Shown piece after piece: positions 8,772-36,437 of a DNA stretch of 64,000 bases. How positions within the stretch are numbered: position 1 is the first letter of the stretch; the number at the start of each line of letters is the position of its first letter. A program made the translations under genes and the position numbers. Below the pieces are notes generated by a model. That model worked only from the letters and a program-made list of their open reading frames with translations. It was not told the origin of the DNA and did no database searches. The stretch comes from Cardiobacteriaceae bacterium (GTDB lineage: Bacteria > Pseudomonadota > Gammaproteobacteria > Cardiobacteriales > Cardiobacteriaceae), in assembly GCA_030525785.1 (NCBI GenBank), contig JAUNEA010000004.1, positions 69,359 to 133,358 on the forward strand, given 5' to 3'.

Positions 8772-9812
<1,041 letters not shown>

Positions 9813-31400: not shown

Positions 31401-32249
31401 ATGCACGATTATGCCGAACGTATTGAATCCGTTCTTATCCAAGCATTACACGGACGTGGGCGTGTATTTGAGGCAATGCGCTACAGCACGCTGGGCGGTG
31501 GTAAACGCTTACGCGCAGCATTGGTCTATCGAACAGGAGAATCTTTTGGGCTTTCTTTGAACGATTTAGACCATAGTGCTGCCGCCGTTGAATTGGTTCA
31601 TGCCTATTCCTTGATTCACGATGATTTGCCCGCTATGGATAACGATGATTTTCGGCGTGGCAAACCCAGTAACCATAAAGCTTTTGATGAACCAACTGCC
31701 ATTTTAGCAGGCGATGCACTCAATACCCTCGCCTTTGAAATTCTTGCAAAAAGCGCTTTGCCAGACTCGGTCAAAATCCAACATATCCAAACGCTGGCTC
31801 ATGCCATTGGGGCTATGGGCATGGTAGGTGGGCAAATGCTTGATATGCAATCTACAACAAACGAATTGAATGAAGCTCAACTTACTCAACTTCACCAAAT
31901 GAAAACTGGCGCACTGATTCAAGCCTCTCTCTTACTTGGCGCACAATACTCCCCACTCTACCCCCAACATCAAGCAACCTTAAGCGCTTTGGGTCAAGGC
32001 TTGGGGCTGTTGTATCAGGTTCAAGATGATGTATTAGACTGCATATCCGATAAAAAAACACTTGGAAAAACAGTTGGTAAAGACAAAGAACAAGGCAAAA
32101 ATACGTTTGTTCGTTTGTGGGGGCTATCGGAATGTGAACGCTGGCTGGGGCAGCAATTGCTCTATCTCAAAGCGCTTTGCGCTACCCTCCCTCAAAATGG
32201 CGTGCCTTTGTGGAGTTTGATTGAATACATCGGTAAACGTAAGTTCTAA
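31401..32249 (+). CDS. ispA: (2E,6E)-farnesyl diphosphate synthase
   Basis: Two aspartate-rich motifs (LIHDDLPAMDNDDFRRGK; QVQDDVLD) in a trans-prenyltransferase fold. Follows xseB. Confidence 0.9.
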   Translation: MHDYAERIESVLIQALHGRGRVFEAMRYSTLGGGKRLRAALVYRTGESFGLSLNDLDHSAAAVELVHAYSLIHDDLPAMDNDDFRRGKPSNHKAFDEPTAILAGDALNTLAFEILAKSALPDSVKIQHIQTLAHAIGAMGMVGGQMLDMQSTTNELNEAQLTQLHQMKTGALIQASLLLGAQYSPLYPQHQATLSALGQGLGLLYQVQDDVLDCISDKKTLGKTVGKDKEQGKNTFVRLWGLSECERWLGQQLLYLKALCATLPQNGVPLWSLIEYIGKRKF

Positions 32250-32323: not shown

Positions 32324-32350
32324 AAGTGTAACCGAGTTACACTTTTATTT
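32324..32350 (+). terminator. perfect 9-bp inverted repeat hairpin + T-rich tail downstream of ispA
   Basis: AAGTGTAAC CGA GTTACACTT followed by TTATTTT. Confidence 0.4.
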
Positions 32351-32439
32351 TAGGGAGTAGTTACACTTCTCCAATCCCCCTTACTGATAAGAATAATGCT
32401 CATCAAACCACTGAACATTATCAAAGCGATTGGGGGCTG

Positions 32440-32907
32440 ATGGTTTATCAATCCTTTGGGGCTTTAGGGCTGGTGGCGTGCGTTTATTGGTTTGGTTCTT
32501 TATTTGCTGAGCAAATTAGAGCGGAGCAATCCTCTTTTCCGTTTTTAGAAATCATTGGCGAATCAGGCGCTGGCAAAACCACGCTAATTGAATTTTTATG
32601 GAAACTATTTGGGCGAGAAGATGAAGAAGGATTTGATCCTAATAAATGGTCAAGCGTTGGTAATTGGCGTAAATTAGCGCAATGGAGTAATCAGCCATCG
32701 GTTTTTATTGAGGCAGATAGAGATGACAGTAATCATCAAAAGCGCTTTGATTGGGAAAGCATTAAATCCTTTTATAACGGACGTGGATTGCGCGGAACAG
32801 GTCAAAAGAGCCATGATAACAATACGCAAGAAGCGGATTTTAGAGGTGCTTTAGTACTTGCCCAAAATGCGCCTGTGAATGCGAGTGAAGCAGACCTATT
32901 TTTATAA
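32440..32907 (+). pseudogene. truncated ATPase-core fragment of a phage/plasmid primase-helicase (P4-alpha / D5 superfamily-3 helicase type)
   Basis: 155 aa ORF. It has Walker A GESGAGKTT, a candidate Walker B VFIEAD, and a C-terminal segment IKSFYNGRGL...FRGALVLAQNAPV whose pattern matches the [IL]KSLTGGD ... helicase motif C (conserved N) region of D5/P4-type helicases. No primase domain is present and only ~190 bp separate it from ispA, so it can only be a remnant. Confidence 0.4.
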
Positions 32908-33026
32908 GCCCATAAAAATATCTCTTGTATTCAAATGTTTAAATTCAACAGCTTTTGGATTGGTTATTTATAGAAAATCCTTGCTAACTCTAGATAGCTC
33001 CAACAATTTCTCTCTGCTATAATCCT
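32908..33026 (+). promoter_or_regulatory. putative CRISPR leader (AT-rich)
   Basis: AT-rich ~120 bp immediately upstream of repeat 1, in the repeat orientation that matches canonical I-F direction. The degenerate repeats are at the distal end. Confidence 0.4.
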
Positions 33027-33474
33027 GTTACACACCGCATAGGTGGCTTAGAAAAGAAAATTTAGAAATAAAATTTGGCATAGTTAGTTACACACCGCAT
33101 AGGTGGCTTAGAAAAAGCGCTTTGCGATAAGCGTTATACACTCGTTGTTACACACCGCATAGGTGGCTTAGAAATTTCCATGCAAATTTGCCATTGCTGT
33201 TTTCACGTTACACACCGCATAGGTGGCTTAGAAATGATTAGATAACTGCTGATTCATCTTTTATTTGTTACACACCGCATAGGTGGCTTAGAAAGCGTAA
33301 TCTTCGAGTTTTGCCACGCTTTGCTCGTTACACACCGCATAGGTGGCTTAGAAAAAAGGCACAGGTTCTTCAACACGCTGATAAGTGTTACACACCGCAC
33401 AGGTGGCTTAGAAAAAAGGCACAGGTTCTTCAACACGCTGATAAGTGTTACACACCGCACAGGTGGCTTAGAAA
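33027..33474 (+). CRISPR. CRISPR array, type I-F-like: 8 x 28-nt repeats GTTACACACCGCATAGGTGGCTTAGAAA with 7 x 32-nt spacers
   Basis: Exact 60-bp periodicity. The repeat has a CACC-GCATA-GGTG hairpin and the conserved CTTAGAAA 3-prime end of I-F repeats. Repeats 7-8 carry a T-to-C change in the loop, and spacers 6 and 7 are identical (duplicated terminal unit). No cas gene occurs anywhere in the window. Confidence 0.9.
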
Positions 33475-33507
33475 ACAAAGCGCTTACCTCGTTTACGAAT
33501 TGCCATA

Positions 33508-33559
33508 AAACTGCCCCCAGAATTGCCGTAAATTTGAGGGCAGTTTAGCGTTATTTTTC
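33508..33559 (+). terminator. hairpin (AAACTGCCC ... GGGCAGTTT) with T-rich tail after the array
   Basis: 9-bp stem with a 21-nt loop, followed by AGCGTTATTTTTC. It could end the array transcript and/or serve the convergent binding-protein gene. Confidence 0.35.
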
Positions 33560-33621: not shown

Positions 33622-35157
33622 TCACTCCTTAACCTGCAAGAGGTCCCATTTAGGAATATTTTCACTATTCACCACTTCAGGGAAGTTGCTAAAGCGTTTG
33701 GTGTATGCCCAATGGAGATTTTGCCAATGCATTTGAATTAAAGGAGCATCTTCGTATTGAATACGGCTAATCTCTTGCAAAAGCGCTTTGCGTTTATCTT
33801 CATCTAATTCAGAAATCGCCTGTTCAATTAAAGCATCTAATTCAGGATTTTTATAGCTGCAATTGTATTGACCCAATCCTTTTTCTGCATCTTTGCTATG
33901 AACAATATAAGTTGCATAATCAATCGAATCACTGGTAATTGGCGCAATGCCTAACATATTCACCGCTGCTTTACATTCATCACGATACACAAAATACTGA
34001 GCGCGTGGCATAGTGGTTAAATTTGCCTTGACATTAATTTTCGCCAATTGAGCTGCCACTGCTTCGGCAATTTTTGCATCGTTCACATAACGATCATTTG
34101 GCGCAATCAAATCTACTTCAAATCCATCAGCAAAGCCAGCTTCCTTCATAAGCGCTTTGGCTTTGTCTAAATCATAACGAGGAGTAAGCTCAGGCACATG
34201 TCCCAAATAACCAGGAGGCGAACTCTGCCCTGCTGCTGTTGCTCCTTCTTTCATGATTTTATCGACAATACCTTGATTATTCACCGCATAGTTAAAAGCT
34301 AAACGCACACGTTTATCTTTAAAGGCTGGCTGAAGATTTTCGTCCATATAGAAGAAAATGATGCGACTGCTTGGCATAGTATGCAAATTCAAACGCTTAT
34401 CTTCTTTCACACGCGCAATATCATTCGGTGGCACAGGGAAAATAAAATCCACATCGCCTGAGAGCAAAGCGCTTATTCTCGTGGCATTTTCTTTAATAGC
34501 ACTGAGTTCAATGCGATCCACATTGCCTGTTTTTTCATAGAAATCAGGGTTTTTCACAAACACCACTTTAATCCCCTGCTCGCGACTTTCAATTTTAAAT
34601 GCTCCCGTTCCTGAGGGATTATTTTCTGCAAAAGACCCTCCTTTAAGCGCGATTTGGTCTTTAGGCTGACCTTTATCATCGTTTCCTGAGTAGAATTTGC
34701 TGTCCATGATAAAAAGATTGGTGAGCATATTGAGCGTGAGCGGATAAGGCTTTTTCTCGACAATATCCACTGTAAAATCATCAATTTTTTCAATTTTTTC
34801 AAACGGTGCAATGACACTTTTAAAATTTGGTGCACTCATTGCTCGATTAAAACTAAAGACTACATCATCAGCTGTGAAAGGATTACCGCTGTGGAATTTC
34901 ACGCCTTGGCGCAGATAAAAGCGCGTGGTGGTTTCGTTCACACGCTCCCAGCGCTCTGCCAAACGCGGTAAGATTTTGTTTTCATGGTCATAACGAACCA
35001 AACCATCAAACACCAAATTCGCCATTTGAATGGTATCAGCAGAAAGCTGCTGCATGGGGTCAAGCGAGACAGGGTCTGCATCGTAGGCGATTTTGATGGT
35101 CGCAGCCTGCGCCAAAGCGCTTAATAGGCTTAAGGTTAATAAGGTTTTTTTCAACAT
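33622..35157 (-). CDS. ABC transporter substrate-binding protein, family 5 (oligopeptide/dipeptide/nickel type)
   Basis: 511 aa with signal peptide and SBP_bac_5-like sequence. No cognate permease or ATPase genes are adjacent. Confidence 0.8.
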   Translation of the reverse strand: MLKKTLLTLSLLSALAQAATIKIAYDADPVSLDPMQQLSADTIQMANLVFDGLVRYDHENKILPRLAERWERVNETTTRFYLRQGVKFHSGNPFTADDVVFSFNRAMSAPNFKSVIAPFEKIEKIDDFTVDIVEKKPYPLTLNMLTNLFIMDSKFYSGNDDKGQPKDQIALKGGSFAENNPSGTGAFKIESREQGIKVVFVKNPDFYEKTGNVDRIELSAIKENATRISALLSGDVDFIFPVPPNDIARVKEDKRLNLHTMPSSRIIFFYMDENLQPAFKDKRVRLAFNYAVNNQGIVDKIMKEGATAAGQSSPPGYLGHVPELTPRYDLDKAKALMKEAGFADGFEVDLIAPNDRYVNDAKIAEAVAAQLAKINVKANLTTMPRAQYFVYRDECKAAVNMLGIAPITSDSIDYATYIVHSKDAEKGLGQYNCSYKNPELDALIEQAISELDEDKRKALLQEISRIQYEDAPLIQMHWQNLHWAYTKRFSNFPEVVNSENIPKWDLLQVKE

Positions 35158-35177: not shown

Positions 35178-36437
35178 TCAAAGCGCTTTGCCTGATTGAG
35201 CAACCAAGCGGCAAAGCGTGATAAAAGTTTGGCAAGATAAGACGAATGAACGCACGGGTAAGAATTCACAGTTTGAATGGAAATTGTGAGCGCCCGTGAA
35301 AAAATTGGGCGTAAACAAGCCTCGCGCGGATAAACTCGAACCATCGGTTCCACCGCGCATATCAAAGCGCTTTGGCTCAATTTCAAGAGCCTGCATAGCT
35401 TGGAGCAGATAATCCACGGCACAGGCATTCTCAGGGGTCATAGCATCAGCGATGTTGGCATAAGTGTCGGAAATAGTGAGGTTAAATTGGGCGCGTGGAT
35501 AACGCAAACGCAAAAATGCCACCAGCTGTTCCACATAAGCCTTACGCGACTCAAAGCGCTTTTTGTCATGATCACGGATAGAAATATCCAAAATAGCAAA
35601 ACTTTGGTTGCTTTCAATACCATTAACCCACCAGTATCCCTCTGTTCCTTCTGTATTTTCAGGAGTTTGCAGGCGGTCTAACTGATTGATGAAATCCACC
35701 GCCACCAACGCAGGATTCACCATCACGCCCTTCGCGGACATCGGGTGCGCTGATACGCCATCAATACGCAAACGTGCATGGGCAGCATTAAAGGTATCAA
35801 TATTGTATTGCCCCAACTCGCAGCAATCGATGGTATAGGCAAAATCAACAGGCAAACGCGACAAATCCATCGCCTTTGCGCCACGCAGACCAATTTCCTC
35901 ATCTGGCACAAAAGCCACATGAATTTCAGGGTGAGGCAGATTTTGGCGAATCATAGCCTCCAGCCCAACCATAATGCTAGTCACTGCTGCTTTGTTATCC
36001 GCCCCCAAAACGCTTGTGCCGTCAGAAAGCAGAATATCATCGCCTTTATAGCGTTCAATTTCTGGATAATCTGCCACGCGCAGCCAAATATCCTCCGCCT
36101 GATTCAAGCAAATATCGCCCCCTGAATAATCCTTCAGCACCCATGCCTTAATTTCAGGCTTTAAGTTCACATCAACAGTATCCAAATGCGCGACAAAGCC
36201 AATTTTGGGGGCATGTTCATAGCCTTTGGTAGCAGGCAACCTCGCGGTTAGTATCGACTGTTCATCTAACACAATCTCCACCAAGCCCAAATGCTCCAGC
36301 TCACTTTTCAAAAGTCTTGCCAAATTCATTTGTCCCACGCTCGAGGGCAAAGCGCTTTGGCTGGCATTGCTTTGGCTTTCGATGGCGGTGTAACGTAAAA
36401 ATTGCTCGATAAGAGCAGGGGCTAAAGTTGATGGCAT
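35178..36437 (-). CDS. pepT: peptidase T (tripeptide aminopeptidase, M20B)
   Basis: 419 aa, M20 metal ligands (HLDTV; DNKAAV; EEIG) and PepT-like overall sequence. Confidence 0.85.
   Translation of the reverse strand: MPSTLAPALIEQFLRYTAIESQSNASQSALPSSVGQMNLARLLKSELEHLGLVEIVLDEQSILTARLPATKGYEHAPKIGFVAHLDTVDVNLKPEIKAWVLKDYSGGDICLNQAEDIWLRVADYPEIERYKGDDILLSDGTSVLGADNKAAVTSIMVGLEAMIRQNLPHPEIHVAFVPDEEIGLRGAKAMDLSRLPVDFAYTIDCCELGQYNIDTFNAAHARLRIDGVSAHPMSAKGVMVNPALVAVDFINQLDRLQTPENTEGTEGYWWVNGIESNQSFAILDISIRDHDKKRFESRKAYVEQLVAFLRLRYPRAQFNLTISDTYANIADAMTPENACAVDYLLQAMQALEIEPKRFDMRGGTDGSSLSARGLFTPNFFTGAHNFHSNCEFLPVRSFVLSCQTFITLCRLVAQSGKAL

Follow-up and report, generated by a model that had tools for sequence, protein, structure and literature searches.

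The window analysed here, a 64,000-nt stretch of the chromosome of a Cardiobacteriaceae bacterium, carries a CRISPR array of type I-F, with repeats of the Moraxella type, in a region where no cas gene was found. The best explanation, to which a probability of about one half is given, is that of a distant array served in trans by cas genes encoded elsewhere. The main alternatives are a relic left behind by a lost I-F system and a passenger of a phage or satellite, and these readings overlap in part. The structure of the array, the repeats of related loci, the genes around it, and a short palindrome that marks the DNA of the host lineage are considered below, before the different explanations are weighed.

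Structure and family of the array

The array extends over positions 33027..33474 of the forward strand, with a predicted left-to-right transcription, and consists of eight repeats of 28 nt (GTTACACACCGCATAGGTGGCTTAGAAA) and seven spacers, six of them unique. The repeats start at 33027, 33087, 33147, 33207, 33267, 33327, 33387, and 33447, a period of exactly 60 nt, and each of the seven spacers measures 32 nt. Not a single match to the repeat appeared in 100 shuffles of the window, and the 60-nt geometry is far beyond chance. Six of the eight repeats are identical, the seventh and the eighth both carrying one T-to-C change in the loop. As spacer 6 is identical to spacer 7, the terminal spacer-repeat unit is a tandem duplication (33355..33474, forward strand), in which the unit of spacer 6 and repeat 7 recurs unchanged as spacer 7 and repeat 8, with a GCACA loop in both repeats. 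An earlier note on this DNA had recognized the duplication, which stands, but had taken the shared loop change for a mutation; it is a common polymorphism, present in 31 of the 97 repeats of one related array (L010) and also seen in the arrays of M. oblonga and Moraxella sp. Pampa. The repeat RNA is predicted to fold into a 4-bp CACC/GGUG stem closed by a 5-nt loop (positions 7-19), followed by CUUAGAAA, and the last 8 nt of the repeat, CTTAGAAA, form the predicted 5' handle of the crRNA. The 28/32 spacing, the hairpin, and the 3' handle reported in the earlier note are all present in the sequence. Downstream of the last repeat (33475-33534), 32 nt containing CAAAGCGCTT are followed by AAAACTGCCCCCAGAATTGCCGTAAATT (33507-33534). 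Other arrays of the Moraxella-type repeat family are closed by a degenerate terminal repeat; as a candidate for a decayed ninth repeat, AAAACTGCCCCCAGAATTGCCGTAAATT matches the repeat at 13 of 28 positions, too weak a resemblance to call.

Comparison with other genomes places this repeat in the Moraxella-type family. The exact 23-nt core of the repeat was searched in one genome per species for 185,579 species (GTDB representatives, a set without the window's lineage), which returned 15 loci, all from Moraxella. Metagenome contigs (JGI/ENA), a set from which the window's lineage is also absent, provided 28 further loci. The array of M. oblonga NBRC 102422 (L002), whose repeat shares the 23-nt core with that of the window and differs from it at 4 bases, adjoins genes encoding Cas1f, Cas2-3f, Cas8f, and Cas5f (E = 1e-46 to 0). 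With the operon of locus L018 as a tblastn query, cas genes were also found to adjoin the arrays of L022, L025, L028, L030, L036, L039, L043, and L046. The exact 28-mer of the window is the repeat of the L028 array, which is placed after a partial cas1, and of L027, a cas-remote array that shares a metagenome contig with the cas2-3/cas8f/cas5f/cas7f/cas6f operon of L043. The own array of that operon has a repeat one base off the window repeat, and the arrays located directly after cas6f in L030, L036, and L043 all have 1-mismatch repeats. Arrays remote from cas are frequent in the cas-bearing genomes of this family (L027 with L043, L035 with L022, and the M. oblonga contigs), and the retrieved flanks are cas-less around the arrays of L001, L006, L007, L009, L027, and L035.

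The hairpin is conserved throughout the family. Among 11 repeat variants, compensatory changes are seen in 3 of the 5 stem pairs, a signal that is abolished when the partner columns are slid against each other, and positions 21-28, which correspond to the 3' handle, are invariant. An A.G mismatch at the base of the stem, leaving 4 bp and not 5, is found in every Moraxella-type variant, including those of cas-adjacent arrays. The stem that the earlier note had singled out as shorter than canonical is thus, as far as these variants tell, a trait of the repeat family and no sign of decay. Judged from its relatives, the array is a genuine type I-F array of the Moraxella-type family, and the I-F assignment already proposed in the note holds: identical or near-identical repeats lie beside cas1, cas2-3, and csy1-4 elsewhere, and the hairpin covaries.

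A tandem repeat unrelated to CRISPR, with a 60-nt periodicity arising by chance, was considered as an alternative. It can invoke the lack of cas genes in cis and the scores obtained with the Rfam CRISPR-DR4 model (RF01317), which all eight repeats match over their full length at 22-23 bits (E = 0.016-0.03), under the gathering score of 35; no match was obtained in the array at that score. The occurrence of the identical repeat beside I-F cas genes elsewhere, the unique spacers fixed at 32 nt, the covariation of the hairpin across variants, and the existence of arrays of up to 97 repeats in the same family effectively refute this reading. The non-CRISPR repeat lacking hairpin conservation, which the earlier note had kept as an option, is likewise contradicted by the compensatory changes among the 11 variants.

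Genomic neighbourhood, leader, and search for cas genes

On its upstream side, the chromosomal neighbour of the array is ispA, encoding a farnesyl diphosphate synthase (31401..32249, forward strand). Next comes an internal piece, 475 nt long, of a gene for a phage primase-helicase (32419..32892, forward strand); it is truncated at both ends and retains an ORF at 32440-32907. According to its tblastn bounds, this fragment corresponds to residues 512-673 of the 895-aa phiCTX primase, and the ORF aligns with positions 513-663 of the 895-position profile of phrog_1139, a DNA primase family (E = 5e-61); amino acid identity to the primase-helicase of phiCTX- and RSY1-type P2-like phages is ~59%. No other piece of the phiCTX primase gene was detected in the window by tblastn. 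The downstream neighbour, on the reverse strand, is a family-5 solute-binding protein gene (SBP_bac_5, 33622..35157) without adjacent permease genes, followed by pepT (35178-36437); a Logan contig carrying the binding-protein gene ends within the last repeat. Since the primase homology is confined to 32419-32892 and no other piece of the gene is present, the array lies within an island of 1.37 kb between ispA and the binding-protein gene, which comprises the phage gene remnant, cut at both ends, the leader of 119 nt, and the array. This island is visibly decayed, and the truncation of the primase gene shows that deletions have occurred in the past. The annotation agrees with the neighbours named in the earlier note, namely ispA, a defunct primase-helicase fragment, a lone binding-protein gene, and pepT. 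None of the related arrays is located between ispA and a binding-protein gene, several of them lying near mnmA instead. The gap between ispA and the primase fragment also harbours a perfect inverted repeat (32324-32369; AAGTGTAAC-cga-GTTACACTT), with a third copy, GTTACACTTC, 15 nt further on. Its half-site starts with GTTACAC, as does the CRISPR repeat; the element may have served the decayed prophage as an operator, or the likeness may be coincidental.

The leader (32908..33026, forward strand) is AT-rich and bears a weak resemblance to the conserved Moraxella I-F leader. In the other leaders of the family, an IHF-like site (AAATCAATnnCTTA) is followed in order by CATTGGTATTTTTGGCAAAAAG, CTTGAT, TAGAAT, 5 nt, and repeat 1. 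The window leader aligns in register with six other leaders and is strongly diverged from them; an nhmmer profile built from 14 leaders matches it at 32938-32991 with E = 0.85 over 64 kb, which is the right place and not significant. A degenerate IHF-like site (AAATTCAACAGCTTT, 32941-32955) and a perfect extended -10 element (TGCTATAAT, 33015-33023), the latter ending 3 nt before repeat 1, can be recognized. A strict sigma-70 scan of the forward strand of the leader found no -35/-10 pair, and the equivalent of the -35 element is degraded, as is the IHF-like site. Transcription from this leader is plausible.

Adjacency to cas genes is typical of I-F arrays, not defining for them, and cas genes were sought in the window by several approaches. 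With the PADLOC models, no Cas family appeared among the best 25 of the 92 families matched by the 65 window ORFs. The six proteins of a Moraxella I-F Cas set (L018), compared by tblastn with the six-frame translation of the window, gave a best E of 0.15, and annotation of the window with Pfam and NCBIfam returned housekeeping functions and no cas. With the help of two Logan contigs identical to the window, the sequence covered reaches from about -0.9 kb to about +71.5 kb (window coordinates), and the added flanks contain housekeeping genes only; neither cas genes nor cas pseudogenes are present. It follows that any cas gene would be at least ~34 kb away on the upstream side and at least ~38 kb away on the downstream side. 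The statement of the earlier note that no cas gene lies within 30 kb is in this way confirmed and carried further outwards, to distances that exceed the 20 kb set as the limit for distant arrays, a class whose definition also requires a cas cluster elsewhere in the genome (PMC7145637).

Host lineage, proposed horizontal transfer, and probable origin of one spacer

The best named relatives of the Mfd protein encoded in the window belong to Suttonella species, with 50-52% identity, and the MnmA proteins of the window and of the contigs bearing Moraxella-type repeats are only ~55% identical. Cardiobacteriales and Moraxellales are different orders. Because a 28-nt repeat is identical in such distant hosts and is otherwise found only in Moraxella genomes, horizontal transfer between orders, involving either the array or an entire I-F system, best explains how it would have reached its Cardiobacteriaceae host. 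A separate observation concerns the Cas2-3f of M. oblonga (L002:1701-5018), which is 98% identical to the Cas3f of Alysiella filiformis (Neisseriaceae) and at most 76% identical to the other Moraxella homologues. This likeness can be taken as a further sign that I-F systems move between families of mucosal bacteria.

The DNA of the host lineage is marked by a 12-nt palindrome, CAAAGCGCTTTG, present in 70 copies in the 64 kb (for example at 32738-32749, 33113-33124, and 33778-33789). Its 10-nt core, AAAGCGCTTT, occurs 127 times in the window, about 2 per kb. The density is 1.7-2.5 per kb for the strain's other contigs and 2.7 per kb for a related species, whose Mfd is 72% identical and whose GC content is 51.5%; the motif was also found in loci L016, L047, L048, and L053. 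In the Moraxella-type loci, the core is absent except for 2 copies in L002, and none is present in the five contigs around the Cas1f candidates discussed below. Whereas only ~9% of the window is intergenic, 15 copies of the palindrome are intergenic and 55 are coding, in all three frames. The coding copies give rise to recurrent QSAL, KAL(C/W), and KRF peptides. Strict signature peptides amount to 2.95 per 1000 residues in the proteome of the window, with 11 in the native Mfd and 9 in that of the 72% relative, and motif-encoded peptides are absent from the Mfd of Suttonella. No mention of CAAAGCGCTTTG was found in the literature searched. The palindrome resembles a DNA uptake sequence or a similar signal spread over the genome, of which none has been described for this clade of Cardiobacteriaceae.

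This motif offers a clue to the origin of one spacer. Of the 12 palindrome bases, 10 are present in spacer 2 (33115..33146, forward strand; AAGCGCTTTGCGATAAGCGTTATACACTCGTT), whose start, AAGCGCTTTG, makes up the window-wide motif together with the last A of the preceding repeat, as the earlier note had pointed out. The 10-mer of spacer 2 is found in 6.0% of the 32-mers of the window, against one occurrence in 351 kb from other lineages. Spacer 2 was thus probably taken from the DNA of this lineage (its chromosome, phages, or plasmids), with odds of roughly 900:1. Because spacer 2 would be lineage-derived and belongs to the second unit behind the leader, the array would have been acted on by adaptation proteins after its entry into the lineage.

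Searches for the targets of the spacers gave no convincing match, whether the whole array was compared by BLAST with 50,697 phage records and 72,556 plasmids, each of the 6 unique spacers with IMG/VR (with N at every sixth position), or the spacers with the window and all the retrieved loci, at a tolerance of 8 or 9 substitutions. The check suggested in the earlier note, a BLAST of the spacers against phage and plasmid databases with attention to a 5'-CC flank, therefore yielded no protospacer for any of them. Two candidates were set aside as consistent with chance: a 24-nt match in an Edwardsiella phage helicase gene (E = 2), and a 24/32 match between the AT-rich spacer 1 and M. oblonga cas1, where the flank is GC and not CC.

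The peptides encoded by the palindrome were also used as a lineage signature in the search for a cas operon elsewhere. Screens for homologues of the Moraxella Cas1f and Cas2-3f gave thousands of matches, the best 120 of which were retained for each protein. Each of these 240 homologues contains at most one site of the signature (QSAL, KALC/W, xKRFx), in a test where a native Cas2-3 would show one site or none ~17% of the time and a recently transferred operon would show none. A long-resident I-F operon of this lineage is accordingly unlikely to be among the 240 Cas proteins listed. Five Cas1f candidates were traced to their samples, and none comes from SRR24915833, all of them originating from other samples.

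Proposed service in trans and rival explanations

If the array is served in trans, its history and function might be as follows. A Moraxella-type I-F array would have been brought by horizontal transfer into a Cardiobacteriaceae chromosome, where it now lies in a small decayed island directly behind what is left of a phiCTX-like prophage primase gene. A precursor transcript would start from the promoter in the leader. Cas6f, supplied by an operon that would be located elsewhere in the genome today, would recognize the CACC/GGUG hairpin of every repeat and cleave at the 3' base of the hairpin, releasing 60-nt crRNAs in which CUUAGAAA, as the handle, precedes a 32-nt spacer and GUUACACACCGCAUAGGUGG. 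Csy/Cascade complexes loaded with these crRNAs would target DNA flanked by CC and recruit Cas2-3. The probable acquisition of a spacer within the lineage and the fact that cas-remote arrays are usual in the same repeat family argue for service in trans. The failure of the searches to find cas genes, the weak similarity of the leader to functional-looking leaders, the decayed state of the island, and the lack of protospacers argue against it. That all eight repeats are intact despite the diverged leader speaks again for service in trans, and fits either continued use or repeat homogenisation. More generally, distant arrays account for ~23% of all CRISPR arrays and orphans for 12%, and a distant array is usually compatible with a cas system present in trans (PMC7145637).

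The closest functional parallel is an isolated, horizontally acquired I-F array of P. aeruginosa that is active 1.3 Mb from cas (PMC13142298). This array, CRISPR3 of strain ATCC 10145, resembles that of the window in its distance from cas, its location in mobile-element DNA, and its horizontal acquisition, and its expression, interference, and spacer acquisition in trans have been demonstrated (PMC13142298). It differs in that a cas operon is present in the genome and that its leader is nearly identical to the cas-adjacent one, whereas the window leader is diverged; moreover, the transfer proposed here would cross orders, from Moraxellales to Cardiobacteriales. The I-F1 loci of Moraxella (L002, L036, L043) share with the window the 23-nt core, the 28/32 geometry, the 4-bp stem with its A.G mismatch, and the CTTAGAAA handle. 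By contrast, their arrays abut cas1 or csy4 and are preceded by a conserved leader of ~130 nt, both of which the window array lacks. Orphan I-F arrays of E. coli, found in genomes devoid of I-F cas genes, reportedly carry spacers targeting cas genes (Almendros et al. 2016 is said to have described them). Unlike these, no spacer of the window matches the retrieved Moraxella I-F cas genes at better than 24/32.

A tentative but serious alternative to service in trans is that the array is a true orphan and a relic, in which case the lineage would once have used its I-F system, acquired spacer 2, and then lost cas, leaving the array without function. The cas genes could even have disappeared in the deletions that left the 475-nt prophage fragment, a gene cut at both ends. 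Such a history agrees with the absence of cas from -0.9 kb to +71.5 kb and with the absence, among the Cas homologues listed, of any that is traceable to this lineage. It also agrees with the divergence of the leader and its lack of a -35 element. In M. oblonga, cas1 abuts the leader, and a deletion ending just upstream of the leader would leave the arrangement seen here. The size of the array, eight repeats, equals the mean reported for orphan arrays, the class that accounts for the 12% of arrays mentioned above (PMC7145637). Long abandonment should, however, degrade repeats, and all eight are intact, their sole variable site being polymorphic in cas-adjacent arrays as well; besides, the absence of cas applies to only ~72 kb of the genome. 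A variant in which the array is a true orphan, but is still read and extended by extrachromosomal I-F Cas proteins (encoded by a plasmid, phage, or transiently acquired operon), spacer 2 targeting conspecific DNA, appears quite improbable. If it were true, spacer 2 would restrict natural transformation or prophage exchange within the species. A restriction of natural transformation has been described for the type II-C systems of Neisseria.

It is unlikely, though less so than that variant, that a phage or satellite carried the array to co-opt the host I-F system against competitors, and that the primase fragment and the array are what remains of it. The leader starts within ~40 nt of the end of the primase homology, and the primase fragment holds the host motif, so the phage would have belonged to this lineage. 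Furthermore, the same repeat family occurs on prophage-like Moraxella contigs (L004, L013, L014, L032) and on three IMG/VR contigs, and one of the spacers found there matches another phage-like contig with a CC motif. Yet every phage-borne example found has only one spacer between two repeats, the second of which is degenerate and ends in TTTAAAAA, and a short leader of its own type (L004:2837-2924, L013:2464-2551, L014:2117-2204, two sites in L032, and L055-L057 from IMG/VR), whereas the window has eight full-consensus repeats. No primase lies beside the array on those phage contigs, and prophages almost never carry CRISPRs (PMC7145637). The window array has seven spacers and a chromosomal setting, its only phage DNA is the 475-nt fragment, and the other flanking genes are chromosomal housekeeping genes. 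The mini-array borne by a mobile element, one of the options of the earlier note, hence fits poorly. RNA anti-CRISPR mini-arrays and solitary repeat units, which have one or two repeats (PMC10651486), are comparable with the window array in that its repeat family is found in Moraxella prophages and IMG/VR contigs, and differ from it in the same respects of size and setting.

The mini-arrays are of interest in their own right. Those of L004, L013, and L014 adjoin terminase genes, and the spacer of L013 matches L032 at position 9645 with 2 mismatches and a 5'-CC flank, providing one clear protospacer for the repeat family. This match suggests phage-against-phage targeting that would borrow the I-F Cas proteins of the host. 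Single repeat-like units were also observed between cas2-3 and cas8f, on the strand opposite to cas, in L018 (14320-14347, GTCATACACCGCATAGGTGGCTTAAAAT) and L017 (7180-7207); they recall the standalone repeat-like regulatory elements that a preprint reports for cas loci (bioRxiv 10.1101/2023.03.03.530964). An unannotated stretch of Pasteurella phage Pmp3 (OR544134.1:10060-10095) contains one sequence resembling an I-F repeat, with ~88% identity to that of the window, which may be a solitary repeat unit.

As an array remote from cas, the locus is largely ordinary, the signs of transfer between orders aside. Arrays remote from cas make up about one third of all CRISPR arrays, and remote and orphan arrays are well known as a class, to which this locus adds an example and no new principle. 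The occurrence of an identical Moraxella repeat in a different order, beside phage debris, points to array-level transfer among animal-associated Gammaproteobacteria. The lineage motif acts as a natural barcode, providing a rare route to dating adaptation from sequence alone. Outside the array itself, the most interesting item is the palindrome, a candidate uptake sequence of this Cardiobacteriaceae clade.
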